Shown here: positions 44,336 to 64,000 of the stretch, piece after piece | How positions within the stretch are numbered: position 1 is the stretch's first letter | Layout of the letters: each line of letters begins with the position of its first letter | Made by a program: the position numbers and the translations under genes | From: an uncultured Planctomycetales bacterium | GTDB taxonomy: Bacteria > Omnitrophota > Gorgyraeia > Zapsychrales > JANLHA01 | Assembly: GCA_964489065.1 (NCBI GenBank) | Contig: CAZAXH010000002.1 | Coordinates: 120,099-184,098 of the forward strand | Length of the DNA stretch: 64,000 nucleotides | Direction of reading: 5' to 3' | Notes under the pieces: model-generated | What the model was told of the DNA's origin: nothing | Seen by the model: only the letters and a program-made list of their open reading frames with translations | The model's database searches: none

Positions 44336-44338
44336 GCC

Positions 44339-47504: not shown

Positions 47505-48461
47505 ATGTTAATAGAAACATTTCAGGCGACGTTGATCGCGACGGTTCAAATCCTTTTGATGGCCGGGGTGGGGTTTGCCCTGGTCAAAACATCCCTCCTG
47601 GATGATCCCGGGCTGGATATGCTGTCCAATCTGCTGGTGAAGGTGTTCCTGCCGCAGATGATTTTTTATCACCTGACGCAGCATTTTCATTTCAGCGATT
47701 ACACGTACTGGTGGGGGTACCCGCTTTTGAGCGTCGGGATCGTGCTGGCAGGGGCCGGTGTGAGCCGGGTGCTCCTCATGTTTCACCGGGGGTGCCGGAA
47801 CCGGAGCCATTTCACCGCTTTGCTGGCGTTCGCGAATTACGGGTATATCCCGCTCATGCTGGTGGCGTCTTTGTTCGATGGAGAGCGGGCGGAGTCCCTG
47901 ACCGTCACGATTTTTTTGATGATCATGGGCTTTGACTTCGCGGTCTGGTCCCTGGGGGTGTGGCTTTTGACCAGCCATAAAGACAAAACCATTTACTGGG
48001 GGCGGGTGCTGAATCCGCCGTTTGTCACCACCGTGGCCAGCCTGCTGTTGATCATGCTGGGATGGCATCGCTGGGTGCCGCCGGCGGTGATCAAGCCCGT
48101 GAAGATGTTTTCCGACTGCGCCCTGCCGTTGTCCATGATCGTGACCGGCGGCAACCTGGCCAAGACCAACCTTCAGGCGGTCGATAAGACGGATATGCGG
48201 TATTTGATTTTCGGGAAGCTGATCCTGTTGCCGGCGCTGGCTTTGGCGGCGGTGAAGGCGTTGTCGCTCCCGTATGTCCCCGGGCTTATGGTGGTCATGC
48301 AGGCCGCGGTGCCCAGCGCGGTGTCCCTGTCGATGATGATCCGTTATTATAAAGTCGATTCGGAACTCATCAACCAGGGGATTTTCTGGGATTCCTTGAT
48401 CAGCGTTTTGACGATCCCCGTCGTGTTAACCATTTATAATTTTATCACGAATTCTTATTGA
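47505..48461 (+). CDS. AEC (auxin efflux carrier) family membrane transporter
   Basis: 318 aa arranged as 5+5 TM inverted halves, typical of AEC transporters. Confidence 0.75.
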   Translation: MLIETFQATLIATVQILLMAGVGFALVKTSLLDDPGLDMLSNLLVKVFLPQMIFYHLTQHFHFSDYTYWWGYPLLSVGIVLAGAGVSRVLLMFHRGCRNRSHFTALLAFANYGYIPLMLVASLFDGERAESLTVTIFLMIMGFDFAVWSLGVWLLTSHKDKTIYWGRVLNPPFVTTVASLLLIMLGWHRWVPPAVIKPVKMFSDCALPLSMIVTGGNLAKTNLQAVDKTDMRYLIFGKLILLPALALAAVKALSLPYVPGLMVVMQAAVPSAVSLSMMIRYYKVDSELINQGIFWDSLISVLTIPVVLTIYNFITNSY

Positions 48462-48922
48462 TCATGTCCAAACCGGTCGCCACGAATAAAAAAGCGTATC
48501 ACAATTATTTTTTAAGCCAGAACTGGGAGTGCGGGATTGAGCTTAAAGGCGGGGAAGTGAAGTCTGTGCGCGCGGGGCTAGTGAATTTCAAGGACAGCTT
48601 CGCGAAGATCGAAGACGGAGAGGTGTTTTTATACAACCTGCACATCAACCCTTATAAGGAAGCCAGTTACATGAATGAGGACCCGGACCGGGCGAGAAAA
48701 CTGCTCATGCACAAGAAGGAGATCCGCAAGATCGTTTCTGAAGTGGCGGAGCGGGGCAAGGTGCTGGTGCCGACAAAGATTTATTTGAACAATCGCGGTT
48801 TAGTTAAAATTGAACTCGCGCTGGGAACCGGGAAGAAGCTGTATGATAAAAGGGAGTCGATGAAGAAGCGCGATATCGAGCGGTCTTTAAGGCAGTCGTT
48901 GCGGGTGGGGAAACGCAGATAG
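48458..48922 (+). CDS. smpB: SsrA-binding protein
   Basis: Conserved SmpB sequence (NKKAYHNYFL...GIELKGGEVKS...LLMHKKEI) with a basic C-terminal tail. Confidence 0.9.
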   Translation: MIMSKPVATNKKAYHNYFLSQNWECGIELKGGEVKSVRAGLVNFKDSFAKIEDGEVFLYNLHINPYKEASYMNEDPDRARKLLMHKKEIRKIVSEVAERGKVLVPTKIYLNNRGLVKIELALGTGKKLYDKRESMKKRDIERSLRQSLRVGKRR

Positions 48923-48942
48923 CGGTTAGGGGCGGCGGGCAG

Positions 48943-48971
48943 TTGCAGTTGGGCGCGTTTGGGTATATAAT
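48943..48971 (+). promoter_or_regulatory. sigma70-like promoter TTGCAG-N17-TATAAT for ssrA
   Basis: Consensus -10 with a 17-nt spacer, ~30 nt upstream of the mature tmRNA 5' end. Confidence 0.5.
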
Positions 48972-49003
48972 TTGAATAGCTTTTTGCCGGAAAGATTTTA
49001 TAT

Positions 49004-49391
49004 GGGGGTGATTGGTCTCGACTTAAGTTGAGAGACCATAGGTGGCATGCCGAGGACGCCAGGTTGGCCTCGTTAATCATCCGGGCACAAAACAAATGGC
49101 ACTTACAGTGTTGTTGCCGAGGCCGAGGCTATTTTAGCCGAAGCCCAACCAGCCCTTGTTTAATTAAAAAACAAGGCCCTCTTATGAGCCAGGCCTGTGG
49201 GCTTATAAGAGGACATTCAGCAGGCTAGCCGCGGCCAGCGCCTTCGGGGCGGCGGCGAAACTTAAGGAGGATGGCCTGACACAGCCCTGTTTGCCGGGTG
49301 GTTGCAGGTGACACTTAAAGACAAACTACGCATGTAGAGGCTTATGGGAAGCAACTGAAGGACCGGGGTTCGATTCCCCGCACCTCCACCA
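49004..49391 (+). ncRNA. ssrA: tmRNA (ssrA, transfer-messenger RNA)
   Basis: 5' GGGGGUGAUUGG...GGUGGCAUGCCGAGG...GGCCUCG aligns with the E. coli tmRNA 5' region. 3' ...GGACCGGGGUUCGAUUCCCCGCACCUCCACCA forms the T-arm and acceptor with encoded CCA. Internal stop-containing hairpin CCCTTGTTT-AATTAA-AAACAAGGG. Sits directly 3' of smpB. Confidence 0.85.
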
Positions 49392-49399
49392 AAATTTTA

Positions 49400-49450
49400 A
49401 GGACTCGTTACTTATTGAGCTTCAATACGTGGCGAGTCCTTTGCTGTTTT
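49400..49450 (+). terminator. rho-independent terminator of ssrA
   Basis: 8-bp stem AGGACTCG/CGAGTCCT with a long loop, followed by TTTGCTGTTTT. Confidence 0.6.
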
Positions 49451-49703
49451 CAGGTGTGGCGGGGCCCGATCAGTGTCCATTTTTTATGACTTAATGCAGG
49501 AACTGAACAAAAAATCCTTGATATACGACGTTCCGGATAAGTGATATTACATGGCAAATGGATACCATTTTATAAAAAACAGGGCTATAATAATGAAAAA
49601 TCGGGGTAAAAATTGAATTATTCAAGAGGTAAAAAACAACGCCAACCAGCAAATGGATAAGTCGTATAATAATTGTTATGTGTAAAAATAAAAAAGGGGA
49701 AAT

Positions 49704-50228
49704 ATGGAAATAGCTATTGTTATCCTATTCATTGTAGGGGGGACAGCTTGTCCTTTATGGTTTTACCTTTTTAAGCATCTTTTTAATTTAAGACACAAAC
49801 TCAGCACTAATATTCGCGAAGAAGTTTATCCGGATATACATAAAACAGTGAATTTGTTGATTTCTCTATCTTCTGCCGCAATTGTATTGACATTTTCGAT
49901 CCTGCAATTTTTAAACCAGCATCCGATAAAATGTAAATATTTTATAATTACATCATGGCTTAGCTTTACATTAGTAGTTATATTTGGAATGGTAATATTA
50001 ACATTTTTATATATTTTTCGTGCACAGTATAAAGTTATGCTCCAGTGCATTAAGAAGGCGAAAGATGACCCTACTAGTGAAACTGCGGAAGATGCCATAA
50101 CAAGTATTAATAGTGTAATGGACAAGGATATTTCCCTTCATGTATTACTCTATATGCAATCTATATCTTTTGTCAGTGGAATTATTTTTTTGATGATTTT
50201 TGCAATTATAAACATAGGAAGCACATAA
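49704..50228 (+). CDS. small 4-TM membrane protein, unknown function (AT-rich islet)
   Basis: 174 aa with four predicted TM helices, a strongly AT-rich codon composition unlike the backbone, and RBS AGGGGA upstream. Confidence 0.5.
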   Translation: MEIAIVILFIVGGTACPLWFYLFKHLFNLRHKLSTNIREEVYPDIHKTVNLLISLSSAAIVLTFSILQFLNQHPIKCKYFIITSWLSFTLVVIFGMVILTFLYIFRAQYKVMLQCIKKAKDDPTSETAEDAITSINSVMDKDISLHVLLYMQSISFVSGIIFLMIFAIINIGST

Positions 50229-50333
50229 CAACCTACTGCAGCGGATGCCGCTCGGCACCTTCGGCAGCCTCGCGACACCGCTGAGTACGGTGCGTTAGCC
50301 GCTAGTCTGCAAATAGAAAGCAAAGGAAAATAT

Positions 50334-51560
50334 ATGCACCCATTCAGAGAAGGAGATACATTTGCTACTTTTAGAAATATGGTTGACACCATAGTTTCTG
50401 AAATCAATTCTCTTGAAAATAATTATGTATTGAAAGCCTCCCAATCTGAATTGGAAGAGCATTTTGTGGGCAAGGTTCTTATTGACCCGTTAGTTCTTTA
50501 TCCAGAGAAAAGATATATCAAAAATCAATCGGGAACTAAAATTGATGTAAGTCGAGACTTCAGAAGGGGACTTTTTCCTGATGAGAGAGCAATAGTACAA
50601 GGAACAAAAGTTGACATTGCCATTCCATTTGAGGGCGACCCAATGCTATGGAGAATCAGGGCTTCTACTTTTAGTTTAAGCGGTTATCCTGAAATTGAAG
50701 TTCGGAACAATGAAATTGTTTTTAGCGTAAGTTTCCCTGACGACTCTGCACAATCAAGCCAACTTCTAGCCGAGATTGACCGCAACACAAAATCACTTTC
50801 AGATGCAGTGGGCTACCTAAAAAGTGATGTCACCAATCACAACAACTCTGCACCAAATACCATCAAGCAGGCTTTGACGAGAAAACGGACGCTTGCTCAG
50901 TCAACAACTGGCGCTATTGCCGCTTTAGGTATTCCTGTAAAACGAGTTGGCGAAGAACCAACTTTTACTATTCCCACAAAAAGAAGAACCAGACCTGCCA
51001 CGCTACCTACTGTTGCAACGGGGAAATATGAACCTGAACCTGTTCTGGATGAGAAGGAATATCAACATATTTTGGAGATATTAAGAAGCATGTCTCTAGT
51101 AATAGAGCGAAACCCATCGTCTTTTGCATCTCTTGATGAAGAAGCAATAAGAGACCATTTTTTGTTACAACTCAATGGTCATTATGAAGGCGGAGCGACA
51201 GGCGAAACTTTCAACGCATCTGGCAAAACTGACATCCTAATCAGAGAAGGCAATAAAAATGTTTTCATAGCCGAATGTAAATTTTGGCGCGGGCAAAAGG
51301 TTTTTACGGAAGCGGTTAACCAATTACTTGGTTATCTTACTTGGAGAGATTCAAAGTGCGCTTTGCTTATTTTCAATAAAACTAAAGACTCAAGTGCTGT
51401 CCGACAAAAAATGCACGAAACTATGGAAGCATTGCCAGAATACAGGAAAACAGAATTTCATCAACCAAATGGAGATTCTCGTTACATTTTGGTCAAAGCG
51501 TCAGAGCCTGGAAAAGAAATTGTCGTTACAACTCAACTCTACGATATACCAGTTGTATAA
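50334..51560 (+). CDS. uncharacterised protein with C-terminal PD-(D/E)xK nuclease-like motif (AT-rich islet)
   Basis: 408 aa. C-terminal GKTDILIREGNKNVFIAECKFWRG gives a D-x14-E-C-K restriction-endonuclease-fold signature. The N-terminal ~290 aa have no recognisable motif. Composition is AT-rich and foreign. Confidence 0.5.
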   Translation: MHPFREGDTFATFRNMVDTIVSEINSLENNYVLKASQSELEEHFVGKVLIDPLVLYPEKRYIKNQSGTKIDVSRDFRRGLFPDERAIVQGTKVDIAIPFEGDPMLWRIRASTFSLSGYPEIEVRNNEIVFSVSFPDDSAQSSQLLAEIDRNTKSLSDAVGYLKSDVTNHNNSAPNTIKQALTRKRTLAQSTTGAIAALGIPVKRVGEEPTFTIPTKRRTRPATLPTVATGKYEPEPVLDEKEYQHILEILRSMSLVIERNPSSFASLDEEAIRDHFLLQLNGHYEGGATGETFNASGKTDILIREGNKNVFIAECKFWRGQKVFTEAVNQLLGYLTWRDSKCALLIFNKTKDSSAVRQKMHETMEALPEYRKTEFHQPNGDSRYILVKASEPGKEIVVTTQLYDIPVV

Positions 51561-53534: not shown

Positions 53535-54032
53535 ATGAACACAGAAAATATTATTTTTCATCCGATTGGCATAATCCGTTCTCCACACCAGAAACTTTCG
53601 GATATTCCAATACAGCCAGTTTTTTCTGACGACATTAAAGGCTCGGTCGTGGTTGATCCTGAATTTGCCGAAGGCTTAATGGACCTGTGTGAGTTTTCCC
53701 ATATCTACCTGTTTTATTATTTCCACCAGTGTCAGGAAACATGTCTGCATGTAAAGCCGTATCTTTCAGACCAAGAGCATGGTGTTTTCGCGACACGCGC
53801 CCCGCATCGGCCCAATAAGCTGGGGATGAGTTTAGTCCGGTTGACAGAAGTGGAAGGGAATATCCTTCATATAAAAGACATAGATATACTGGATGGGACA
53901 CCCTTGATTGATATAAAGCCGTATATACAACGGTTTGATTCAAGAGAAAAGGTCCGGTCAGGATGGCAGGATCTTGTGTCTGACAACACCGCGGCCATCC
54001 GGGGATTAAGGAATTATAAGAAACAAAAATAG
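53535..54032 (+). CDS. TsaA/TrmO-like SAM-dependent tRNA methyltransferase (YaeB/UPF0066 family)
   Basis: Family-typical N-terminus IGIIRSPHQ, ...VDPEFAEGL...SHIYLFYYFH and a C-terminal GTPLIDIKPY motif. Confidence 0.75.
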   Translation: MNTENIIFHPIGIIRSPHQKLSDIPIQPVFSDDIKGSVVVDPEFAEGLMDLCEFSHIYLFYYFHQCQETCLHVKPYLSDQEHGVFATRAPHRPNKLGMSLVRLTEVEGNILHIKDIDILDGTPLIDIKPYIQRFDSREKVRSGWQDLVSDNTAAIRGLRNYKKQK

Positions 54033-54104: not shown

Positions 54105-54803
54105 ATGAGCAAAAAATTTATATTATTGACTGTGATAATATGTGTTTCCTGGGCGGGGTTCCTGATAGCAGCCGCCGGCCGCTTAAAAGCTACATCGGCC
54201 AACGCCCCTTACCTTGAACCCCTCGCGGATACGGAATACGAAGCCATGATTGCCAAAACAGTGCATGAACAAATAAATGGCAAGCCTGTCCCGATTTATT
54301 ATCTCTGGTTTACGGAGGATAAACATCCGGGCCCTTTAAAATTATTGCGTTTTCTTGCCGCAAAACAAAAGGTGATCGTGCAGCCCCTCGCCGGGTCCAG
54401 CCGTTCTTCAAAACCAGGAATATATAAGGGGTGGATCGGAAGGGACGATATGGATGAATTGGTTAAATATGCGGAATCGAATCAGCCGGCCGCCGCCTTT
54501 GTGTCAGGCTTAACTCCCTTCGCCCCTAAATCCACGGTGGGGAAAGAAGCTGTCCTCATGATAGAGGCGTATCGCGCGAGGCCTTATCCTGTCGGTTCGG
54601 GGGACAGTTTTCCCCTCAATGTTCTCGGCAGGAACGCGTTTTTTAAAGAAACAAGCCAGGAAGACCGCGCTCGGGAAATTCTGGAATGGTGGGGCATAGA
54701 AAAGAACAAAGCCGGGGAAAAGGCCTTTTCTGTCGAATTGGAAACAACCCCTGATAGCCATCCCGGCGAGGATGATTCAAACGCGGCTATGGGGTGGGAT
54801 TGA
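54105..54803 (+). CDS. hypothetical secreted protein
   Basis: Signal peptide; 232 aa; no motifs recognised. Confidence 0.45.
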   Translation: MSKKFILLTVIICVSWAGFLIAAAGRLKATSANAPYLEPLADTEYEAMIAKTVHEQINGKPVPIYYLWFTEDKHPGPLKLLRFLAAKQKVIVQPLAGSSRSSKPGIYKGWIGRDDMDELVKYAESNQPAAAFVSGLTPFAPKSTVGKEAVLMIEAYRARPYPVGSGDSFPLNVLGRNAFFKETSQEDRAREILEWWGIEKNKAGEKAFSVELETTPDSHPGEDDSNAAMGWD

Positions 54804-54921
54804 TTGAGATTATTCAAGATTATATTCGTAAAATCAAACGATAATCGATTTTATTCCTGCCACTTTATTCCCGCCACCACTCAAAAGGACTGATAGATTC
54901 TTGTTTCTTGCCCAAAACACC

Positions 54922-54929
54922 TGTATAAT
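54922..54929 (+). promoter_or_regulatory. extended -10 element TGTATAAT just upstream of the transglutaminase-like gene
   Basis: TGnTATAAT lies 9 nt before the ATG at 54938 with no intervening RBS, suggesting a leaderless-type start. Confidence 0.35.
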
Positions 54930-54937
54930 TGACTATT

Positions 54938-56866
54938 ATGAAAAAATTCTCCCGCCTGTGTTCTGCCGCTTTCTTGGTCGGTCTTGTGTTCTGTACACTC
55001 TCTTCCGCGGAGAATGATTCCCCCTTCCGGGACTATACTCACCCGGAGAAAATGCCGATCCTTGTCTGGGCCGAGATTGTCGAAGACCTCCCGTATTATT
55101 TCCTGGAAGAGACCCGGGAGGCAGAGCTGAACGACGATTGGTCGATCGAGGAGCGGCTGCACTACCGTCTGAAAATCCAAAAAGAGTTGGCCAAGGAGCA
55201 GGGCGAACAAAGGCTTTATTATAATAACAGCCGGGAGGAGATCACGGATATCCAGGCGTTTGTGGAAACCCCGGATGGGAAGAAATACCCGTTTACCAGC
55301 ATCCAGGATCTGGATGTTGTTCAGGAAACGCCCATGTATTCAGACCTGAAGGTCAAGGTGATCACACTCCCGCAGGTGAATATCGGCAGTGTTATTGACG
55401 TGACGGTGACGTCCCGCATGAGCCGGGACGCGATCCCGGACCAGTTTTCCCGTATTGAAACATATCCGGAGATCCCGCATCAGGTATATAAAGCGACGTA
55501 CACCTGGTCTAAGGATAAAAATATCCTCGTCAAACCTTATCGGACTACGTTAAGCCCGGTAAATTCGGAAAAGGACGGAAAAATAAGCTATACATTTGAA
55601 TATAAACGGACGTTTCCTATTCAGGGGACAGAGCCGTTCCTGCCGCCGTACAATGAGGTTTTTGGTTTTTTCTCCATTTCCTCGCTTAAGGATTGGCAAT
55701 CCGTGGCGGATTGGTACCGGGACCTCATTCAGAAGAATATCCGGGACGACGAAAATATACGTCGGAAAGTTAATGAATTGTGTGCCGGGAAAGCCTCCCA
55801 GGCCCGGAAGGCCAGAGCGGTCCTGGAGTTCTTGCAGGACAACATGCGTTATGTGTCCATGTCTTTTGGGGAGCATACGGTTGAGCCGCACCCCACGGAC
55901 GAAATTTTTAACAACATGTATGGGGATTGTAAGGACTGGTCTCTTTTAGCCAAGCAGATGTTGAATATCGCCGGGATTAAGGCCGACCTCTGTTTGTTCA
56001 ATGATGAACTCGCCGGAGACCCCCAGTGGGGCTTGCCGTCGGTTTCTTTGTTTGACCATGTGATCCTGGAGGTGGAGCTGGACGGCAAGAAGTTTTTTGT
56101 GGACCCGCAGCTTAAGAATTTCGATTGGGGCCAGTACCCGCAGGAGTATAATAACGCCTATCTCTTGGTCATTCAGGACGAGGGGTATCGTTTTGCCAAC
56201 ATCCCGGTGGCCTCGGTGAAAGAGACAAAGAACCTTTATAAGATCCTGTGCCGCCTGAACGTCGCCGGGGCGGCTTCTTATGATGTGATTGCGCGGCTGA
56301 ACACGGAGGTGTCGAATTATATCCGGCTCCTGTGGCGCAATATCCCCCAAGAAAGCAAAGGCAGATTTTTTGAGGATATTGAAGCCCAATTCGCCAGGGG
56401 CGGGCAATTGACCAATCCCAAATTAGACGGCGTTGATGCCCGCTATGGTCCGGTGCTCTTGAAGTTTAACGTCCGCGCCCCGCACGCGTATCAGAAGACA
56501 AATGAGATGATCATCTTGAGCGAGCCGGTCGCGCAGTATTTCCCGAACCCCTTTTCCTCCCGGGACCGGATTTACCCGGTGTTTATCCCCGGTGAAGAAA
56601 TCCACCGTATCCTGGTTGTGTATTCCATCCCCGAGGGGTATGCTGTGGACTATGTCCCCAAGGATTTCAACCTGGAGAATGAGGTTTTTAGGTTAAGCCG
56701 TAAAACGGCCGTCAGTGGTTCACGCATCGATGTGAATTATCTCTTCCGGACGAAACGGGCCCGTGTCTCCCGGGAGCGTTATCCGGAAATGCTGAAAGTC
56801 TGGCGTGTTTATGGCAGGGAAATCCGCAACGCGATTATTTTAAAGGCCAAAAATAGGGGGCGGTGA
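54938..56866 (+). CDS. DUF3857-like plus transglutaminase-like cysteine-protease-fold protein, secreted
   Basis: Signal peptide. Transglutaminase core Cys motif MYGDCKDWSLLAKQMLNIAGIKADL with downstream H and D. The N-terminal beta-rich domain is typical of DUF3857-transglutaminase proteins. Start chosen at ATG 54938; the track used TTG 54929. Confidence 0.7.
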   Translation: MKKFSRLCSAAFLVGLVFCTLSSAENDSPFRDYTHPEKMPILVWAEIVEDLPYYFLEETREAELNDDWSIEERLHYRLKIQKELAKEQGEQRLYYNNSREEITDIQAFVETPDGKKYPFTSIQDLDVVQETPMYSDLKVKVITLPQVNIGSVIDVTVTSRMSRDAIPDQFSRIETYPEIPHQVYKATYTWSKDKNILVKPYRTTLSPVNSEKDGKISYTFEYKRTFPIQGTEPFLPPYNEVFGFFSISSLKDWQSVADWYRDLIQKNIRDDENIRRKVNELCAGKASQARKARAVLEFLQDNMRYVSMSFGEHTVEPHPTDEIFNNMYGDCKDWSLLAKQMLNIAGIKADLCLFNDELAGDPQWGLPSVSLFDHVILEVELDGKKFFVDPQLKNFDWGQYPQEYNNAYLLVIQDEGYRFANIPVASVKETKNLYKILCRLNVAGAASYDVIARLNTEVSNYIRLLWRNIPQESKGRFFEDIEAQFARGGQLTNPKLDGVDARYGPVLLKFNVRAPHAYQKTNEMIILSEPVAQYFPNPFSSRDRIYPVFIPGEEIHRILVVYSIPEGYAVDYVPKDFNLENEVFRLSRKTAVSGSRIDVNYLFRTKRARVSRERYPEMLKVWRVYGREIRNAIILKAKNRGR

Positions 56867-57633
56867 TGACGATAAAAAAATACTCCATTGGACTTGCCGG
56901 ACCGGGGTGGATGATAGCGTCTTTGATTTTAGCGGCCGTGGCCTATGCGGACAGAGTGACATTAAAAAGCGGGCGCGTTATCGAGGGAGATATTGTCGCG
57001 CGCGGCGCGGACTTTGTGACGCTCCAGAGCGACGATACCTTTTTCAAAGTCCGTTACAGCCAGATGAGCGAAGAATCTGAAGCGCTGCTTAAAGGAGAGG
57101 GCGTGTCCGTTAAGGAGGTGATTTCCGCGGAAGAGGTTTTGGAGAAGCTGGCGATGGAACTGGGGAAGGACGAGTGGGGGAAGCGGGTGACGGTTTATAA
57201 AGATTATTTTAGCCAGGTGAGAGAGATGCAGGTCCAGTTTGTTCTGATCATGCTGCAGTCAGCCGTGAGAATCAACCAATCCCTGAACAGAAAGAATGTC
57301 CGGATCGGGGAAAAGATCGCCCAGGAAACATATCAGCAAGTGCTTCATCTCAAGGGCCGGATGGAAGAATTGGCGCCCTTGGAGGAACTGCGCCCCTTTC
57401 ATGAAAAAGTGATTAACACGTTCGTGCTGACGCTCAAGTCGATTGACGCCTGGTCCCTGGGGGACAGCAATATTTATCATAGCTATAACAAGAAGGCCGT
57501 GGAGGCCATGATCGCGTCCATGGAGGAGTATTCGCTGTTTATTGAACTTCTGGGCAGTTCTCCGGAGGAAATCCAGGGCGCGCGTGCGGCCACCGCCCAG
57601 ATGAAGGCGCAGTTGGAGCAGATGTATTATTGA
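56863..57633 (+). CDS. hypothetical lipoprotein/secreted protein
   Basis: GTGA overlap with the upstream gene. N-terminal hydrophobic segment; the remainder is helical. Confidence 0.45.
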   Translation: MMTIKKYSIGLAGPGWMIASLILAAVAYADRVTLKSGRVIEGDIVARGADFVTLQSDDTFFKVRYSQMSEESEALLKGEGVSVKEVISAEEVLEKLAMELGKDEWGKRVTVYKDYFSQVREMQVQFVLIMLQSAVRINQSLNRKNVRIGEKIAQETYQQVLHLKGRMEELAPLEELRPFHEKVINTFVLTLKSIDAWSLGDSNIYHSYNKKAVEAMIASMEEYSLFIELLGSSPEEIQGARAATAQMKAQLEQMYY

Positions 57634-57738
57634 TGAGTTGTTTCTTAACATGCTGTGCCGTCGCGGACTATTAAATAATATGCGTTATAAAATTGCTAAA
57701 GAAGTTTAATATTATTTTTAGAAAGGAGAAGGAGAGGA

Positions 57739-58263
57739 ATGTTCAGATTAATTATTTTAGTTTTAGTGGCCGGGATCCTGGCCGGCGGCGCGGCTTTCGC
57801 GCAGGGGGGGGCCGGGGCGCCCGATGTCAACCTGGCCGCGGAGGCGTTTTATAATAAAATTGACACAACCACGGAATGGGGGAAATGGATGGTGGGCGTT
57901 TTTAAGCCGTATGCCGATAAGTTAACGGCAGAGGCCCTCGTCACGATTTTCCCGGTGACACAGATTGACCCGGCCGGGTTATCCCGGGAGGAACTCATGA
58001 GAAAGGTCACGGCCGGTTATGCGGATTATTATAATGCGCTGCAAAAGATCGCCCCGCCTGAAGAGCTGAAAGCCTATCACAGCAAAGTATCGGAAGTCTA
58101 TGCTGTGATATCAAAAAATATTCCCGCGACTCCCGAGCAGTCCCTTGATATGGAAATAACAATAAAGAAGTTATATGATGAAGCCATGCAGGAAATCGTG
58201 AACGTGTTAAAAAGCCGGGGAGTCCCTCCGGACGTTATCGAGGAATTTACAAAGACGCTGTAG
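57739..58263 (+). CDS. hypothetical secreted protein
   Basis: RBS AAGGAG and a signal peptide (...GGAAFAQG). Confidence 0.45.
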   Translation: MFRLIILVLVAGILAGGAAFAQGGAGAPDVNLAAEAFYNKIDTTTEWGKWMVGVFKPYADKLTAEALVTIFPVTQIDPAGLSREELMRKVTAGYADYYNALQKIAPPEELKAYHSKVSEVYAVISKNIPATPEQSLDMEITIKKLYDEAMQEIVNVLKSRGVPPDVIEEFTKTL

Positions 58264-58299
58264 GCCTGAAAGGATACGGGGCGCGGGATAAAGAGAGCC

Positions 58300-58345
58300 G
58301 CAAGTTATTTTAAAATGATAATTTGCGGCTTTTGTTTTTATGCTA
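58300..58345 (+). terminator. rho-independent terminator
   Basis: AGCCGCAAGTT...AATTTGCGGCT hairpin followed by TTTTGTTTTT. Confidence 0.55.
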
Positions 58346-58517
58346 AATTAATAAGGTGTTTCCTTTTTGGACGAAGATTTTTCAGGGGATACCCGTTGGC
58401 CGGGGAAAGCAGAATAAGAAGGGGATATTGGTCGAATACCCTGTAGCTTGGTGCTACGGTTCATTCAGTCCAGAGCTTGCTTTGGGGTTTATCCATTTGA
58501 TTTAAAAGGAGCGTGTC

Positions 58518-58940
58518 ATGGAAGTATCTAAAAAAGGTCTCCCGGGAGAGGGATGGGTGATCGCGAGCCATTTAAGCGTTCCCGCTTCGTTTTTTCTGCC
58601 AATCCCGTTTGCTTTCTTCCCCTTATTTATATGGGCGATCAAGAAAAAAGCCCCTTTTGTCCGGGAACAGGTAAAGCAAACGTTTAATTTCCAGATGACA
58701 CTTATCCTGTATCTCCTTGTATTTTTCGGCGTAGCTTTTTTGATCTGTTATTATTCCCGGGACCCTAACCTGTTCGCCGTAGGGTGGATTTTCCCTATGA
58801 TATTTTATTTTGTGGAGTTCTTGTTCTCCGGCATTGCCGTTCTTATGAAGATCGCAAATTTAGAGACCTTCGATTATCCCTGGACCATCGAGTTTATAAA
58901 AGAGAAAAACTGGCGGTTGTTGAAGGCGGATGGATTGTAG
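58518..58940 (+). CDS. DUF4870-like small membrane protein
   Basis: 140 aa with 3-4 TM helices and a conserved N-terminal region (ASHLS.P.S.F...P...IW...KK.PFV). Confidence 0.5.
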   Translation: MEVSKKGLPGEGWVIASHLSVPASFFLPIPFAFFPLFIWAIKKKAPFVREQVKQTFNFQMTLILYLLVFFGVAFLICYYSRDPNLFAVGWIFPMIFYFVEFLFSGIAVLMKIANLETFDYPWTIEFIKEKNWRLLKADGL

Positions 58941-58982
58941 GGATAAACAGCGGTTTGTCATAATTCAACCCAGGAGGTTTTT

Positions 58983-61900
58983 ATGGAGGCTGTCAGCGTC
59001 AATAAACCCATGAGGATGTTGGCCGTGACCGGGTTCTTTTTTGCCTGTCTTGTTTTTTACTTTGTCAATTCCATGTCCTCCGATGGTAATTATTTCGTCC
59101 AGCCCGATAACCGGGCCGGGCTGCTGGCCGTGGGAATAGTTTTTATGATTATAAACTCCACGGTGCATACCGGTTTCTGGAGAGGGGAAAGGTGGGGGTT
59201 TTATTTTTATAGCTTTTTTTGGGTGCTTTTGACTTCCATCCTGGGGGACACGGAAGACCTGGGTTCCCGGCCCGACGCGTATGTGCAATGGTTCCCCGTT
59301 TTATTCCTGATTGCCGGAGGCTTTATTGTTCTGCCCTGGCACCCCGCTTTCCGGCTTAAGTTTTTCCCTGACAGGTCGTGGCCCCAGTTCGTCGTTAGCT
59401 ATATGGTGTTATTCTGTTATTGGATGGTTGCGCTGCTGGGAGTCGTCGGCCTTTTCATGATGGGGATGTTAATTTTTTATAAGATTCTTGGAGCCCCTGT
59501 GCTTTCCTGGCAGATTCTTCTCGTGGGGGGAATGTTGGGGGGCATCTCTGTTCTGTTCTGGCTTCTGGCGAGAGGGCTCTCCCGGCGTAAACGTTGGGCG
59601 TATGTCGTTGTCGTTGTATACCTTGTGGGGTTGTTATTCTCTATATACTCCGACGATATGAAATGTTTTTCTTTCTCTTTCTGGCAATACTATTTCCCGT
59701 CGTTGCTGTTCATGGCTTTCGTGGGTGGATTCCTGGGCCTTTTCTTGGGCACTCCTGTCCGCGACCTGTTTTTTAAGCGGCTGCAACCGGACAGCCCGTC
59801 CGCCGGTACCGCTTCTCTCCCGAAGGAGGATGCCACCGGGACAAAGCCGAATATTAAAAGGATTTTTACGATCGCAGGCATGCTTTTCTTGGCGGCCGGC
59901 TTGGCCATCACGGCGATTTTTTTATGGAAAAAGGACGAAATAGCTGTCTTTTCCCAAGAGCTTTTTCCTTGGCTGGGCCTGGAACAAAAGTTCGAGAAAA
60001 CAGGAGTGCCTGAATTCCCGCGAGTCTTGTCGGTGGACAAGAAGAATGAAACCGTGAAAGTGAATATCGGCCAGGATTGGGGGCTTAAGCCCGGGGATGT
60101 GTTGAAAATTTACAGAGGGGAGGATTATAAGGGCGAGATGACGGTCAGCGAGGTCTTGCCGCAGGGTTCTTGGGCCAGGCCTGTTTTGCCGTTAACGGCT
60201 AAGGACATCCGGGCCAGGGATAATATTGTGTGTGAAACCCCGTTATTTTATTACAAACGCGGTGATATTTATTTGTCTTTGCGCCAGAACAGCGCGGCCC
60301 GGGAGGATTATGAAAAAGTGGCCCAACTGGAGGCCAGGTCGCCGTTGCACGCTTTAGGGTTGGGCAAACTCGCTTATGCCAGCCAGCAATATTCCCAGGC
60401 GCTCTCTTTTTTGGATAAAGCCATCGCCGCTGACTCCGGGCTCGCCGAAGCCTATTATCAGCGCGCTTTGGTTTTTTATGCCATGCAGGACCTGGCGCAG
60501 CCTTTGGCCGACCTTTCAAAGGCTATAGAGCTGAAGCCGGACTTTGTCGAGGCCTACAGGCTGCGGCTGGAGATCAATATCAAGGCGAGCCGGTTTGAGG
60601 AATGCAAGGCGGACATCAGTCGGTTGGAGGAACTGCGCGCTGCGGTCGATCCGTCCATCCTTCAGCAGCTAGAGACCGATTCCGGCAAATTGCGCGTGAC
60701 CCAAAGCCCAGCGGGCTCTCGAACGGCCAAACCTCAAACGATTATCTTGCCGGAAGGCCGTGCTTTTCCGTGGCAAGATCCGGCCGGCTGGCGGCGGGTT
60801 TCTTTTAGCGAGGCGACGACAGGGCAGCTCGTCCCCATCAATCTTGAGTTTATTGTTCCGGATAGCTATGTTTCCGCATCGGGGGACTCCTGGTCTTTGT
60901 GGGGGGATCCTAATGATATAAAAAGAATCTCGAAAGACATGCAAGACCCCAGTTCTTTGTTTTATGCTGACAAGCCGTTATTTGATTTTTTTTATTCCAT
61001 GACTGTCGCATATTTCGAGGATACTGGCAGGTTCAATATTGAGCAAAACAAAGGAAGCTCAAAAGCATCGGCGGGTTCAAAATGGCAAAGGACATCCATC
61101 GGCGGGTATCCGGCCTTGATTTCGATGGATGATTACAATGGCCGGACTTTGTATAGCTGCCATATCGCCACAATGATGGCGACCAATGTCGTGACGTTTT
61201 CCGTGGTTTCGGGGAAGTCTTCCTCCCCGGAAGACAATGAATCGACGTGGATGACTTTCCTGAAAGGGATCCGGAGGCCGCGGTTCAAGGCGCCGTCCCT
61301 GGAAGGGGAAGACGCCGCGGAAACCTTACAAAGAGTGAGGGCCGCATTAATTCCCGAAGGGCGGAAAGCAAAAATCGGGATTGCGTTAAAAATCATGGCC
61401 GGTCCGGAAAGCGCCGCTGAACGTCCGGTCTTTGCGCAGGATATCCTGTTGACCCAGGGGGAACAGGGATTCGAACAGATGGACATCCAAGGCAGGGTTT
61501 CCGGTGAGGCCATCGTTACCCGGGAAGGGAATATTTCTAATATTGAAGCTTGGGAATTCCCTGTCCCCAAGATTGACGAAGAGAAAATTATCCGTGAAGG
61601 GGATCGGGTTAAGGTAGAAGTTACCAATGACGGCCAGAGCTTTTCCAGTGAAGTCCCTTTCCAGGAATTCGGAAAATATTCTCCGGCCTTGGCCTTGCTG
61701 GGCGGCCAGCCTTTTGCCGCGACGCAGAAGGAACTCGTTGAGGATTTGCTGGATATGTATGATTTTAAACAAACGGAATCCGGTGATAAAATTATTTTAC
61801 ACGGTGTCGGTAATAAGGACCGTTTGAAAAGAAAGATGCCGGAAGGGACCTCCCGGGACCTCCCCGAATTTTATCATGACGTGGATTTGGCGGAGGAAGC

Positions 61901-62030
61901 TCTGCGGAATCACGGGAAGATCACGGTCACAATTAACCGGGAAACGTATGCCGTAGAGGAGTGCCTTATTGACGGCGAGCTGATCATGCAACCCATACAA
62001 ACCATAATTCGTTTTCAGACAGAAAAATAA
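58983..62030 (+). CDS. large polytopic membrane protein with extracytoplasmic TPR-repeat region
   Basis: 1015 aa with ~8 N-terminal TM helices, then TPR-like repeats (AYYQRALVFYAMQDLAQPLADLSKAIELKPDFVEAYRLRLEIN) and a long C-terminal soluble region. Confidence 0.6.
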   Translation: MEAVSVNKPMRMLAVTGFFFACLVFYFVNSMSSDGNYFVQPDNRAGLLAVGIVFMIINSTVHTGFWRGERWGFYFYSFFWVLLTSILGDTEDLGSRPDAYVQWFPVLFLIAGGFIVLPWHPAFRLKFFPDRSWPQFVVSYMVLFCYWMVALLGVVGLFMMGMLIFYKILGAPVLSWQILLVGGMLGGISVLFWLLARGLSRRKRWAYVVVVVYLVGLLFSIYSDDMKCFSFSFWQYYFPSLLFMAFVGGFLGLFLGTPVRDLFFKRLQPDSPSAGTASLPKEDATGTKPNIKRIFTIAGMLFLAAGLAITAIFLWKKDEIAVFSQELFPWLGLEQKFEKTGVPEFPRVLSVDKKNETVKVNIGQDWGLKPGDVLKIYRGEDYKGEMTVSEVLPQGSWARPVLPLTAKDIRARDNIVCETPLFYYKRGDIYLSLRQNSAAREDYEKVAQLEARSPLHALGLGKLAYASQQYSQALSFLDKAIAADSGLAEAYYQRALVFYAMQDLAQPLADLSKAIELKPDFVEAYRLRLEINIKASRFEECKADISRLEELRAAVDPSILQQLETDSGKLRVTQSPAGSRTAKPQTIILPEGRAFPWQDPAGWRRVSFSEATTGQLVPINLEFIVPDSYVSASGDSWSLWGDPNDIKRISKDMQDPSSLFYADKPLFDFFYSMTVAYFEDTGRFNIEQNKGSSKASAGSKWQRTSIGGYPALISMDDYNGRTLYSCHIATMMATNVVTFSVVSGKSSSPEDNESTWMTFLKGIRRPRFKAPSLEGEDAAETLQRVRAALIPEGRKAKIGIALKIMAGPESAAERPVFAQDILLTQGEQGFEQMDIQGRVSGEAIVTREGNISNIEAWEFPVPKIDEEKIIREGDRVKVEVTNDGQSFSSEVPFQEFGKYSPALALLGGQPFAATQKELVEDLLDMYDFKQTESGDKIILHGVGNKDRLKRKMPEGTSRDLPEFYHDVDLAEEALRNHGKITVTINRETYAVEECLIDGELIMQPIQTIIRFQTEK

Positions 62031-63679
62031 TGAAAAGAAAGATTCCGCCGGTGTTGACCTTGTCTTTGATTTTATCCGCGCTTGAGATAGTGGCCTATCC
62101 GTATCCGGGGATCCTGTCTTGGCTGGCCTCCCGGTGCTGGCTGGCGCATGGCGCGTTTTATTTCTTCAGCAGTATCGCGTTTATTTATAAAACCCTGCGG
62201 CAGGATGTCCGGGAAAAAAATTTCCGCGGGCTGGTAATTTTCTTCCTGTTTGGCTGGATGATTTTGAATATCGCGGGGTCCCGGGGGATCGTCATTAACC
62301 ATGAAAGCACGCAACAGGTGGCTGATGGATGCGCCTTTTTCAAGCTGCCTGATTTTAATTACACGCAGACAGGGTTTTTTGGGTATCCCGCGCGGCAGTA
62401 TCTTGTCGTCGCCCTGCCGTCTTTGCTTTTGGGAAGAAGTCTTCTGGCACTCCGGTTAGGGTACGCCGGGGTTTTCCTGCTTGGGATTATGTTGTTTTAT
62501 TGCGGCCTGAACCGGTGCTTTTCTGAAAGCAAAACCGGGAGAACCCTGATCGCTCCGGTTATAACGCTGTCGCTCCTGTGTTTCCCCGTCGTTGTCAACA
62601 TCATGGCGGCCTGTGAACAGACCGTTTTGCCTATATCATTCACGCTTCAGGCGGCGGGGTGGTTTTTGTTATGCCTTAAAGCCGCCACGCCCGGGCGGCT
62701 GATCAGTTTAGCTTATGTCGGAGGGTTGCTGGCGACATCATACACTCCGGGGCTCGCCCCGTGGCTTTTACTGATCGTTTTGATGGGCTTGCGCGTGAAA
62801 CAGGACTTGCGGTTGAAACAGTTCGATCGCATGGCCCTGTGGTTGAGCGGAGCGGTGTTTGTCGCCGCTATCGGCGGCGCGTCATTCTTTACCCGGATAG
62901 ATATGCTTGCCCGGCAAAGCGGAGTCTGGGTCCCCGCTTCCGTGCGGTGGCCATATCTGGTGGCCGCCCTAAGAGAGATTTTTATCCCTTTGTTTTATGC
63001 ATTTTTGCCTTTGCCTGTCGTAATTTATGTCCTGTTGTCCTTGCTGAAAATGTTTCGCCCCCGGGATTTCTGGATATCCCTTTGGGCGGTGGTGACGATT
63101 TTCTTGGCGACCCAACTCGGCGGACTCGCAAGCCCGGCCCCTCCGTACAGTTTACACAGGGCGTTGGTGATTATCCCGCCGCTTTTGATATCGTTGGCTT
63201 TAACCATTGAGCCGTGGCTGGCTGGGCAGGGGAAGATATCCCCTAAGATCCTGTTGTTGGCTTTGGTTTTCGGGCTATTGATCCCGGCGAAGAATTTACG
63301 TGAAGGACTGAACCTGTGCAGGAGCGGGATCCGGGATAAGGTCGTTTATGACACCTTGGATGTGGTGCATACGTATGGGATTGACCCCAACGGTCCGTTA
63401 CGGTTTATCGTCGTCCCGGAGAATGTTGAATATTCCGGTCTGCATGATTGTTTCAGGTATTTTTATCCTAAATTTGAATTTTTATGGCGACAGGATATTG
63501 TCCTCAGGATGGGAATAGCCGATGTTCCGACTTTGGTTTATCTTGATGCGGAGAGTCCGATTGTCAGCGTTATGGAAATGCTTTGGACGCGGCGCGCGGA
63601 CTTGGCGGTGGTTCAGTTTTCTTTCCAGGAACAGAAGGTGCGATTTCTCCGGGGGGTTTATATTCCGGCTAAGAAATAA
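62030..63679 (+). CDS. polytopic membrane protein, possibly GT-C-fold glycosyltransferase-like
   Basis: 549 aa with >10 TM helices. Start overlaps the stop of the upstream gene (TAATG). No catalytic motif confidently recognised. Confidence 0.45.
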   Translation: MKRKIPPVLTLSLILSALEIVAYPYPGILSWLASRCWLAHGAFYFFSSIAFIYKTLRQDVREKNFRGLVIFFLFGWMILNIAGSRGIVINHESTQQVADGCAFFKLPDFNYTQTGFFGYPARQYLVVALPSLLLGRSLLALRLGYAGVFLLGIMLFYCGLNRCFSESKTGRTLIAPVITLSLLCFPVVVNIMAACEQTVLPISFTLQAAGWFLLCLKAATPGRLISLAYVGGLLATSYTPGLAPWLLLIVLMGLRVKQDLRLKQFDRMALWLSGAVFVAAIGGASFFTRIDMLARQSGVWVPASVRWPYLVAALREIFIPLFYAFLPLPVVIYVLLSLLKMFRPRDFWISLWAVVTIFLATQLGGLASPAPPYSLHRALVIIPPLLISLALTIEPWLAGQGKISPKILLLALVFGLLIPAKNLREGLNLCRSGIRDKVVYDTLDVVHTYGIDPNGPLRFIVVPENVEYSGLHDCFRYFYPKFEFLWRQDIVLRMGIADVPTLVYLDAESPIVSVMEMLWTRRADLAVVQFSFQEQKVRFLRGVYIPAKK

Positions 63680-63717
63680 AAGTTGCCGGATTTAACTGAA
63701 TAAGCGACAATATTTTT

Positions 63718-64000
63718 ATGATTCGATTTTTCATCAGTTTTCAGATGTTCCAGGGCATTTTTCTCGGGGTGCTTTTATCTTTGTTGTGCTGCCTGAAGCA
63801 CACGTGTGCTGTCCGGACACATCGGATTAAGACGGTTCTTTGCGCCGGCCTGGCTTATTTTGCTCTCCCTTCGGTGTTGTTTTGTTTTTCCTTGCCTTTG
63901 CCCCTTTTGCAACGTGTCGCGCTCTGCGCGCTGGTGACGTATTGTTTTCTTAACGCGGTTAAAAGAGTGAAAAAGAGCGAAACCCTGATACGTTCGGACC
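63718..64000 (+). CDS. membrane protein, N-terminal fragment (continues beyond the window)
   Basis: ATG followed by 94 stop-free codons to the window edge. Hydrophobic TM-like segments. Confidence 0.35.
   Translation, partial: MIRFFISFQMFQGIFLGVLLSLLCCLKHTCAVRTHRIKTVLCAGLAYFALPSVLFCFSLPLPLLQRVALCALVTYCFLNAVKRVKKSETLIRSD

Follow-up and report, generated by a model that had tools for sequence, protein, structure and literature searches.

Two GT-C-fold membrane protein families absent from Pfam in a gene row of Candidatus Omnitrophota, with a proposed role in periplasmic glycosylation

The last part of the window, i.e. of the 64,000-nucleotide stretch of DNA analysed here, carries a row of approximately 10 kb with eight genes for exported and membrane proteins, which raises the question of what these proteins are and whether they act together. 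The source chromosome belongs to Candidatus Omnitrophota, a phylum without cultivated members whose cells are very small and probably host-dependent; the organism is diderm and has LptF/LptG as well as a TonB-dependent receptor. All eight open reading frames were found on the plus strand at the positions given in the initial annotation, together with its two overlapping junctions (GTGA at 56863 and TAATG at 62030), and its domain calls were confirmed by Pfam (DUF3857 and Transglut_core in g2, DUF4870 in g5, TPR in g6). According to the reading that we favour, and that as a whole we consider probable rather than certain, the region consists of two adjacent units. Unit A (g1-g4) would be a variable set of Sec-exported proteins ending at a conserved intrinsic terminator, and unit B (g5-g8) a periplasmic-face glycosylation module using polyprenyl-phosphate sugars. 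The features are as follows:

g1, 54105..54803, plus strand: ORF for a 232-aa exported or membrane-anchored hypothetical protein
TGTATAAT, 54922..54929, plus strand: extended -10-like octamer, 8 nt 5' of the g2 ATG at 54938
g2, 54938..56866, plus strand: 642-aa secreted protein with DUF3857 and a transglutaminase-like cysteine-protease fold
g3, 56863..57633, plus strand: ORF for a 256-aa exported protein
g4, 57739..58263, plus strand: ORF for a 174-aa exported protein, the last of unit A
Hairpin, 58293..58333, plus strand: intrinsic-terminator-like, 17 pairs followed by a T-run, inside the g4-g5 gap
g5, 58518..58940, plus strand: 140-aa small membrane protein of the DUF4870 (MamF_MmsF) family, the first of unit B
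g6, 58983..62030, plus strand: ORF for a 1015-aa membrane protein with TPR repeats
g7, 62030..63679, plus strand: 549-aa GT-C-fold membrane protein of a family absent from Pfam
g8, 63718..64000, plus strand: start (94 codons) of the gene for a 534-aa GT-C-fold membrane protein of a second family absent from Pfam, truncated where the window ends

For comparison, we used a relative that is about 94% identical (L009), a species at about 70% identity (L007) and a third other Omnitrophota species (L002). The full length of g8 was read from L001, whose overlap with the window is identical in 1970 of 1971 nt.

The GT-C fold of g7 and g8

Enzymes of the GT-C class transfer sugars from lipid carriers to targets beyond the cytoplasm. 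They make or modify essential parts of the envelope, among them lipid A, arabinogalactan and both O- and N-glycoproteins, and are difficult to spot by sequence. The 549-aa protein described initially as GT-C-like (g7) and the membrane protein running off the window (g8) are both polytopic, and the overall fold of each matches solved GT-C enzymes. Both proteins can be assigned to the GT-C fold with confidence, so that the early suggestion for g7 holds and extends to its neighbour. Neither protein had a Pfam or NCBIfam hit (PF13231 and PF02366 included; E<=0.1-1), the search against PDB profiles was negative, and no sequence-level link to any described GT-C family was obtained. The PMT_2 and PMT models matched none of 81 g8-family members, and alignment by hhalign to the local PMT_2 genes was non-significant (10% probability for g7; 61% over 37 columns for g8). 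Paralogy between g7 and g8 was not detected either. They are previously uncatalogued GT-C members from two families not in Pfam or NCBIfam. The g7 family has a sparse distribution that takes in Omnitrophota, Acidobacteriota, Clostridia, Patescibacteria and some of the Gammaproteobacteria. In a set of 1.84 billion proteins, the g8 family has only 89 representatives after clustering at 50%.

All 11 g7 sequences have E or D at position 92, and D108 is kept in at least 90%, as is D127 of g8 among 81 sequences. These acids sit in a long loop that the positive-inside rule predicts to be periplasmic. This fits the published position of the GT-C catalytic Asp, which follows a TM helix where the first periplasmic domain begins (PMC11127046), and makes them candidate catalytic residues. 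ArnT and other PMT_2 proteins (PF13231; CAZy GT83, GT39-like) share with g7 and g8 the GT-C fold, the polytopic inner-membrane character, a size of approximately 500-580 aa and the long first periplasmic loop with conserved acids, and g7 also has a small C-terminal soluble domain. Moreover, genuine PMT_2 genes lie directly downstream of g7-g8 in relatives. In contrast to these enzymes, g7 and g8 match neither PF13231, PF02366 nor any other Pfam or NCBIfam model, and they appear to carry additional N-terminal TM helices ahead of the canonical TM1 and its periplasmic loop; according to our reading of AlphaFold helices and loop charges, g7 has two of these and g8 three.

PIG-U and GAB1, both GPI transamidase subunits, are models for a GT-C fold that is non-catalytic. 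It is conceivable that g7 and/or g8 likewise have the fold without being glycosyltransferases, serving as non-catalytic subunits or lipid-binding scaffolds, or that they are diphospholipid-donor polymerases or ligases of the Wzy, WaaL or SEDS type. Their sequences place them in no catalytic family, and the glycosyltransferase families acting on sugar-diphospholipids are also large polytopic enzymes that were overlooked by earlier classifications (PMC10920833). Nevertheless, we regard this explanation as unlikely, given that the best fold matches of both proteins are catalytic polyprenyl-phosphate-sugar enzymes with Z clearly higher than for PIG-U or GAB1, that the loop acids are strongly conserved where GT-C enzymes place the catalytic base, and that genuine PMT_2, GT2 and UbiA genes occur as neighbours.

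In four Omnitrophota species (window included) the two genes are inherited together and always lie side by side, and a natural 1201-aa protein was found in which a g8-like domain is fused to a second polytopic domain. Both features are reminiscent of the pairs Pmt1-Pmt2 and EmbA-EmbB. However, g7 and g8 differ from such pairs in lacking detectable paralogy and in that g7 relatives in other phyla occur without g8. New CAZy families are still founded on single characterised members, for example GT136 in 2024 (PMC11127046). The present assignment adds two further sequence families to the GT-C fold, each with conserved candidate catalytic residues; its value lies mainly in annotation and hypothesis generation, and nothing known is overturned.

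Unit B and its possible role in glycosylation

Of the remaining proteins of unit B, g5 matches DUF4870 as initially annotated (Pfam E 3.5e-16) and is 87-90% identical in L007 and L009. For g6, a membrane part of about eight TM helices joined to TPR repeats had been described. The repeats were recovered by Pfam (TPR_1, TPR_2, TPR_11 and TPR_8 over their cut-offs), and we counted nine hydrophobic segments (aa 1-315), followed by a small beta-domain (~340-410), the TPR region (~421-550; nt 60243-60632) and a C-terminal domain of ~430 aa. The TM and C-terminal parts had no Pfam hit, and no profile linked the TM domain to GT-C families. The even loops together hold 16 lysine and arginine residues, compared with 4 for the odd loops, and this charge bias predicts that the protein past TM9, including the TPR region, is periplasmic. 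Full-length relatives of g6 were found in Omnitrophota only (75-86% identity in L007 and L009). The overlap at TAATG indicates that g7 is translationally coupled to g6, but g6 is absent from L002, which keeps g7-g8, and the partnership is therefore not obligatory.

In ArnT, Pmt, Aft and ALG enzymes, the sugar is supplied by a polyprenyl-phosphate carrier. As we infer it, a sugar on such a carrier would be flipped across the inner membrane into its outer leaflet, taken by g7 or g8 and transferred to an extracytoplasmic acceptor with the aid of the acid conserved in their first long loop on the periplasmic side. The TPR repeats and the ~430-aa domain of g6, situated in the periplasm, would most likely recruit or hold the acceptor, and g5 may be a small membrane accessory.

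Unit B is conserved in two other species of Omnitrophota, and a third keeps the g7-g8 pair. In relatives the unit runs on into three PMT/PMT_2 genes, and such genes come after g7-g8 in L005, L006, L007 and L009. The pair is surrounded in L002 by genes for UbiA, two GT2 proteins, a FAD oxidase, an SDR epimerase, a weak PMT_2 hit and DUF2298, with a PF09685 gene at the left edge of the cluster. Among 103 neighbours of g7 relatives outside the Omnitrophota, PMT_2 was most recurrent (6), besides methyltransferase domains (5 members each), GT4/GT1 (4), PMT (4) and UbiA (3); DUF2298 and sugar epimerases recur as well. Given the GT-C fold of g8 and the continuation of the row into three PMT/PMT_2 genes, g5-g8 can fairly be called an envelope or surface glycoconjugate module. 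The initial proposal of an envelope-remodelling or surface-polymer module is supported to that extent, but not for g1-g8 as one unit.

Several known systems can be compared with unit B. TMTC1-4 are eukaryotic O-mannosyltransferases of the GT-C/PMT clan with TPR (PMC7801869), and TfpW of P. aeruginosa is a GT-C enzyme with TPR that glycosylates pilin with D-Araf (bioRxiv 10.1101/2020.04.19.049825). As in these proteins, whose combination of GT-C and TPR goes with protein acceptors, a GT-C enzyme is associated here with an extracytoplasmic TPR region, the TPR-bearing g6 being coupled to g7. In contrast, the repeats are not fused to the enzyme in one polypeptide but lie on the separate g6, whose 9-TM domain has no GT-C relationship detectable by sequence or profile and which carries the additional ~430-aa domain and is missing in one species with g7-g8. 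A second comparison concerns three-component systems such as GtrA/B/C and the GT136 pentofuranose system of Citrobacter youngae, in which a GT-C enzyme performs the final step (PMC11127046). The final GT-C enzyme is unlike earlier GT families in both cases, and in L002 g7-g8 lie beside redox and epimerase genes and UbiA- and GT2-type candidate polyprenyl-phosphate-sugar synthases. However, the complete set of synthase, flippase and GT-C enzyme was not found: candidate synthases were seen only in L002, neither the window nor the 10 kb downstream in L009 contains a gene for a GT2 or UbiA synthase or a flippase, the cluster of close relatives likewise has no synthase or flippase, no flippase of the MATE or GtrA type turned up, and two to five GT-C genes are present instead of one.

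Given the diderm host with its LptF/LptG and TonB-dependent receptor, unit B might alternatively carry out an ArnT-like modification of lipid A or the LPS core that alters the charge of the outer membrane. We consider this quite unlikely, because the g7 family also occurs in Clostridia, which are monoderm, and in Patescibacteria, both without LPS, and no genes of the ArnA/B/C/D type are located nearby. In addition, a periplasmic TPR partner and several PMT-family neighbours would seem to fit protein or glycan acceptors better. A conserved block in which up to five GT-C genes are combined with a periplasmic TPR protein suggests that Omnitrophota bear an elaborate surface glycoconjugate, which could matter in host attachment. 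It is tempting, but speculative and of low probability, to assume that g6, g7 and g8 form a three-protein machine for periplasmic protein glycosylation that is restricted to a single Omnitrophota lineage. In it, a heteromeric GT-C pair resembling Pmt1-Pmt2 or EmbA-EmbB would be served by a 9-TM/TPR subunit delivering exported proteins, the product would decorate the surface of these ultra-small, host-dependent cells, and the unit A proteins would be substrates or surface effectors.

Unit A and the boundary between the units

The junctions of the row had been described as short or overlapping. While this applies to the two overlaps, g4 and g5 are separated by a gap of 254 nt holding the terminator-like hairpin of 17 pairs. 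Its predicted RNA fold has -26 kcal/mol with a z of -6.7, and none of 200 shuffles folded equally well. The hairpin and approximately 30 nt 3' of it are near-invariant in L007, in which identity of the proteins on either side is only ~70%; Rfam gave no match. We therefore regard it as a strong putative terminator separating unit A from unit B, and the row would probably give rise to two transcripts.

The N-terminus of g1 has a hydrophobic segment (residues 5-23); the protein matches nothing in Pfam or NCBIfam and is 84% (L009) and 75% (L007) identical in relatives. The secreted 645-aa protein with a transglutaminase-like Cys-His-Asp core, as initially described, corresponds to g2, which has this length if started from the TTG at 54929. 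Pfam placed DUF3857 (E 7e-19; 68.9 bits, cut-off 24.6) and Transglut_core (E 4e-5; 24.3 bits, cut-off 23) above the gathering score, as well as DUF553 (E 2e-4) over its cut-off. The triad is intact, with the Cys in GDCKDW at 329, the His in FDHV at 372 and the Asp in FVDPQ at 387, and g2 accordingly belongs to the DUF3857/transglutaminase-like proteins. It shares with them the domain order, the canonical Cys-His-Asp order and the N-terminal export signal but differs in that no C-terminal DUF3858 was detected; a sequence search found no PDB relative. The protein is 96% identical in L009. To judge from the GTGA overlap, g3 is translationally coupled to g2, and in its C-terminal part it shows weak paralogy to g4 (pairwise BLASTP, E 9e-5). 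One protein had been called lipoprotein-like, but a lipobox ([LVI][ASTVI][GAS]C) near the signal-peptide end is lacking in g1-g8, and the first 40 residues of g3 do not include a Cys. In g4, the hydrophobic N-terminal segment ends AFA|QG; identity is 93% in L009 and 71% in L007/L008. With respect to anti-phage defence, no PADLOC model matched g1-g7.

Synteny had been named in the initial annotation as the test that could refute its reading. It is kept for g1 and g4-g8 at ~70% identity (L007) and for g7-g8 in a third species, and g7 and g8 are neighbours in each of the three other species of Omnitrophota found. Both g2 and g3 are absent from L007, where, as in L008, an unrelated 780-aa gene without Pfam hit takes their place and g4-g8 stay; L007 is thus a natural example of a gene content without g2-g3. 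In L009, an SGNH gene is inserted. That g1-g8 form one operon building or remodelling a surface polymer, with secreted g2 processing or cross-linking what the membrane proteins make, is very unlikely: the common strand, the two overlapping junctions, the kept order of g1 and g4-g8 and the intact triad of g2 would suit it, but they are opposed by the gap with its strong hairpin conserved across species, the replacement of g2-g3 with g4-g8 unmoved, the lack of any g1-g4 homologue within 10 kb upstream of g7-g8 in L002, and g7 relatives in other phyla that never have g1-g6 homologues nearby. A single operon, understood as a row without internal terminator whose members are all co-inherited, is therefore not supported, nor is the initially suggested processing or cross-linking by the transglutaminase-like protein.

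An extended -10 element had been assigned to the first gene of the row; TGTATAAT in fact precedes the second one, g2, and the accompanying remark that a Shine-Dalgarno sequence is missing before the start applies to g2. The octamer occurs three times in the window against 0.88 expected, which is not significant alone, as 10 of 100 shuffles reach this number. It is conserved in L009, although this relative is in any case ~94% identical. A leaderless or near-leaderless start of g2 is possible.

Gene content and the hairpin between g4 and g5

Eight genes lie on the + strand between positions 54105 and 64000 of the window:

g1, 54105-54803, + strand, ORF of 232 aa
g2, 54929/54938-56866, + strand, ORF of 645 or 642 aa
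g3, 56863-57633, + strand, ORF of 256 aa
g4, 57739-58263, + strand, ORF of 174 aa
g5, 58518-58940, + strand, ORF of 140 aa
g6, 58983-62030, + strand, ORF of 1015 aa
g7, 62030-63679, + strand, ORF of 549 aa
g8, 63718 to the window end (cut), + strand, full length of 534 aa taken from contig L001

The full length of g8 is based on an overlap in which L001 and the window are identical at 1970 of 1971 nt. Pfam recognized DUF3857 (E 7e-19), Transglut_core and DUF553 in g2, DUF4870 in g5, and TPR repeats at residues ~421-550 of g6; no significant match was obtained for g1, g3, g4 and g7, and none for g8, and an NCBIfam search yielded nothing beyond the Pfam calls. The transglutaminase-like Cys-His-Asp core attributed to g2 in the initial annotation is complete (GDCKDW, FDHV and FVDPQ). 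A product described there as lipoprotein-like found no counterpart, given that none of the proteins carries a lipobox and that the first 40 residues of g3 are free of cysteine. Weak paralogy (pairwise BLASTP E 9e-5) links g4 with the C-terminal part of g3 (56863-58263); both have the motifs 'EWGK' and 'AP.EEL..H.KV'. A reading of g1-g7 as a defence system was ruled out, with zero PADLOC matches.

The extended -10 element TGTATAAT, previously assigned to the first gene, is actually located at 54922-54929, 8 nt 5' of the ATG (54938) of g2, the second gene. It occurs three times in the window versus 0.88 expected copies, a number that is not significant (three or more in 10 of 100 shuffles). The absence of a ribosome binding site at this start was correctly noted: unlike g3-g6, which are preceded by clear Shine-Dalgarno sequences, g2 is devoid of one, and a leaderless start is therefore possible.

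The overlaps GTGA at 56863 and TAATG at 62030 are both present, and the latter suggests that g6 and g7 are co-translated. While these two junctions fit the earlier description as short or overlapping, g4 and g5 are separated by a gap of 254 nt, and no other terminator-like hairpin of the region is as strong as the one in this gap. This hairpin (58293-58333) comprises 17 pairs followed by a T-run, with a fold of -26 kcal/mol (z = -6.7) that none of 200 shuffles matched in stability. The hairpin and ~30 nt 3' of it are near-invariant between the window and L007, a contig of a second species, despite an identity of only ~70% between the flanking proteins. Such high conservation argues for a function of the hairpin; an Rfam search of the conserved g4-g5 spacer gave no match to a known RNA element. 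We infer that g1-g4 (unit A) and the genes from g5 onwards (unit B) are separate units, or at least parted by an attenuator. The conservation at 58293-58365 exceeds the need of a plain terminator, and the stretch may serve g5-g8 as a regulatory element.

Two GT-C-fold proteins, g7 and g8

Relatives of g7 are rare, with only 12 clusters in a word-indexed search of 5.8 billion proteins, and a pattern scan of GTDB genomes revealed 26 loci in Omnitrophota, Acidobacteriota, Clostridia, Patescibacteria and a few Gammaproteobacteria. No link of g7 to any described family could be established by sequence using Pfam, NCBIfam and a profile search against solved structures. Its AlphaFold model, built on an 11-sequence alignment, is confident (pLDDT 81.8, pTM 0.87), and Foldseek placed ArnT at the top (E 2e-5), followed by STT3, EmbA/B/C, PglB and Pmt1-Pmt2. 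According to this model, g7 has the GT-C fold, the fold of the glycosyltransferase class that uses lipid-carried sugars outside the cytoplasm. The residues conserved in the family (N90-x-[E/D]92, D108 and Y119-P-x-R-Q-Y124) are situated in a 54-residue loop past the third transmembrane helix, which is periplasmic as judged by loop charges. This loop would be the equivalent of the loop that comes first on the extracytoplasmic side in canonical GT-C enzymes and holds their catalytic acid (PMC11127046).

The second protein, g8, likewise has the GT-C fold and is different from g7. A word-indexed search retrieved four clusters, every one in Omnitrophota and adjoining g7, and an exhaustive HMMER scan of 1.84 billion proteins extended the family to 89 representatives at E <= 1e-3 and 21 at E <= 1e-30. 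None of 81 aligned members had a relevant Pfam match (two isolated spurious ones at E ~ 2e-3), and the g8 profile gave nothing meaningful against the sequences of solved structures. Conserved motifs are DW.KHN, LVYY.A.YLP..GK, H.EWW..QYSS..L.WVP.Q and NDL.MRASIPAL; D127, conserved in at least 90% of the members, lies within a 47-residue loop that is periplasmic by loop charges. Compared by hhalign with an alignment of PMT_2 genes from related loci, g7 reached a non-significant 10% probability, though the right regions were aligned, and the g8 alignment was positionally sensible and also non-significant. Paralogy of g7 and g8 was not detected by BLASTP and hhalign (7.7% probability), though their acidic loops align together. 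The contig of P0052, a distant g8 relative, is too short for informative gene context. A protein from the HMMER scan, P0062 (1201 aa), is a natural fusion in which a g8-like domain (residues 37-533) is followed by another polytopic membrane domain and, at the C-terminus, a soluble part; its second half could be assigned neither to g7 or PMT_2 nor to any Pfam family.

Outside Omnitrophota, 103 ORFs were scanned within ~4.5 kb of 19 g7 relatives. The commonest Pfam family among these neighbours was PMT_2 (6 members), followed by several methyltransferase-domain families (5 each), GT4/GT1 (4), PMT (4), UbiA (3), and DUF2298, GDP-mannose dehydratase and epimerases (2 each). The g7 family is thus found in the company of glycoconjugate biosynthesis genes, and g8, g6, g5, g4 and g1 accompany it in Omnitrophota only. 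Two distant relatives (31-33% identity; L003:1748-20890 and L004:5407-20788) are solitary genes flanked, in the same arrangement, by a polyamine block (deoxyhypusine-synthase-like, agmatinase, arginine decarboxylase) on one side and a bacterial microcompartment locus on the other.

Conserved core and exchangeable genes in related genomes

The order g1-g8 is kept in the strain-level relatives L009, L010 and L011 (91-94% nucleotide identity), which carry an additional 285-aa SGNH/DUF4886 gene between g3 and g4. The continuation downstream of the window is taken from these relatives: PMT/PMT_2 (476 aa, minus strand), PMT_2 (523 aa, minus strand), GDSL-like and AHSA1 genes, then a 76-aa ORF, PMT_2 (504 aa) and a 333-aa ORF. 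The second species (L007, L008, L012) retains g1 (75%), g4 (71%), g5 (87%), g6 (75%), g7 (66%) and g8 (81%), with PMT_2 genes after g8 and an unrelated 780-aa protein without Pfam match at the position of g2-g3. In L006, g6-g7-g8 are kept and followed by two PMT_2 genes. The third species (L002 and L013; complete 3.36-Mb chromosome) has kept g7 (56%) and g8 (70%) only, in the order DUF4870, 246 aa, UbiA, GT2, GDSL-like, GT2, FAD amine-oxidase-type, 553 aa, 578 aa (weak PMT_2), g7, g8, SDR epimerase (minus strand) and DUF2298. Synteny across the three species groups therefore defines g7-g8 as the conserved core, which widens to g4-g8 plus g1 in the lineage of the window and one sister species, and g2-g3 is a replaceable cassette. 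The larger cluster around g7-g8 in the third species (L002:1259-16652) includes two membrane proteins of ~550-580 aa, one of them the weak PMT_2 match, and its UbiA, oxidase and SDR genes recall polyprenyl-phospho-pentofuranose donor pathways.

The genes g2 and g3 (54929-57633 versus L009:2029-4730) are 96-98% identical, their neighbours g1, g4, g5 and g6 84-92%. This higher identity, together with the replacement by the 780-aa orphan in L007, suggests a recent exchange of the cassette. A TrmO-like gene just 5' of g1 (53535-54032) is missing in L009, leaving a gap of ~480 bp in an otherwise 94% identical alignment, and L007 has retained no more than its last 33 codons, which marks the left cluster border as an indel hotspot.

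A putative periplasmic glycosylation module and its genomic setting

Full-length relatives of g6 are confined to the same Omnitrophota lineage. The protein has nine hydrophobic segments, and the bias of K/R residues (16 in even-numbered versus 4 in odd-numbered loops) implies an N-in topology with the ~700 residues past TM9, namely a small beta-domain, the TPRs and a further domain of ~430 aa, in the periplasm. Its membrane and C-terminal parts had no match in Pfam (TPR alone in a sub-domain search), in PDB sequences or among GT-C profiles, and single-sequence searches of g2 and of the g6 C-terminal domain against solved structures gave nothing meaningful. No relationship of the g6 membrane domain to GT-C profiles or g5 was found, nor paralogy of g6 with g7/g8 (BLASTP, hhalign). 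The product of g5 is a typical small DUF4870 membrane protein and the best-conserved small gene product of the block (87% in L007); the L002 cluster likewise has a PF09685 gene at its left edge. Pfam now names DUF4870 'MamF_MmsF', and magnetotaxis occurs in some Omnitrophota. A magnetosome role for g5 was dropped, with no other magnetosome-type gene in the window or related loci.

We consider it rather probable that unit B is a glycosylation module of the periplasmic face. The observations behind this reading are two GT-C folds whose acidic, predicted periplasmic loops are conserved, genuine PMT_2 genes beside them in relatives, a TPR protein (g6) that is coupled to g7 and predicted to expose its repeats to the periplasm, and a conserved terminator 5' of g5. 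In such a module, g7 and g8 would move a sugar from a polyprenyl-phosphate carrier onto a periplasmic acceptor, which g6 may bind or present, and the sugar donor would be synthesized elsewhere in the genome. A protein acceptor is somewhat favoured by the TPR in g6, in analogy to TMTC (PMC7801869) and TfpW (bioRxiv 10.1101/2020.04.19.049825), while g7 relatives occur in monoderms and Patescibacteria, which speaks against an acceptor specific to lipid A. The exported proteins of unit A would form a set of their own that evolves fast, with the transglutaminase-like g2 probably being a secreted cysteine protease or transamidase.

By fold, g7 and g8 resemble ArnT, Pmt, Aft and ALG-type enzymes, but by sequence neither matches PMT_2/PMT or any other Pfam/NCBIfam model. 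Unlike TMTC-type fusions, the module carries its TPR on another polypeptide (g6), and the lack of a synthase or flippase in the cluster sets it apart, in this genome, from self-contained three-component systems; neither a sugar-activating gene nor a GT2 or UbiA synthase nor a flippase was found within the window. A literature search retrieved no description of either family. The known GT-C class is the best place for g7 and g8, each as a new family, a result that is useful to the glycobiologist and not startling.

Proteins (near-)identical to g7 in its clusters are annotated as Candidatus Omnitrophota bacterium, and the GTDB loci point to the same phylum. Samples in which these genomes occur come from anaerobic digesters, for example JGI 3300010353 and 3300027914. 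Otherwise, the window consists of ordinary housekeeping chromosome with ClpC/McsB, RadA, IspD/IspF, CysS, MetG, Tmk, HolB, SmpB and tmRNA; the additional presence of LptF/LptG and a TonB-dependent receptor indicates a diderm. SmpB (48458-48922) is followed by the tmRNA gene (49004-49391) and, 3' of it, by a low-GC stretch (0.42) with a 174-aa membrane ORF and a 408-aa ORF (region 48458-51560). The latter has no Pfam match and is matched by the PADLOC candidate defence family PDC-S54 (E 1.6e-133); the stretch looks like a small defence islet inserted beside ssrA. An ORF of 2052 aa (36520-42678) contains a response-regulator receiver (residues 1461-1576) as its sole recognizable domain, and the possession of very long proteins has been reported as a trait of Omnitrophota (bioRxiv 10.64898/2026.06.07.730766). 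Approximately 10 kb 5' of the cluster (42896-45322), an MBOAT-family membrane O-acyltransferase (479 aa) precedes a 327-aa protein without Pfam match, possibly forming a pair for O-acylation of a polysaccharide or teichoic-type polymer.
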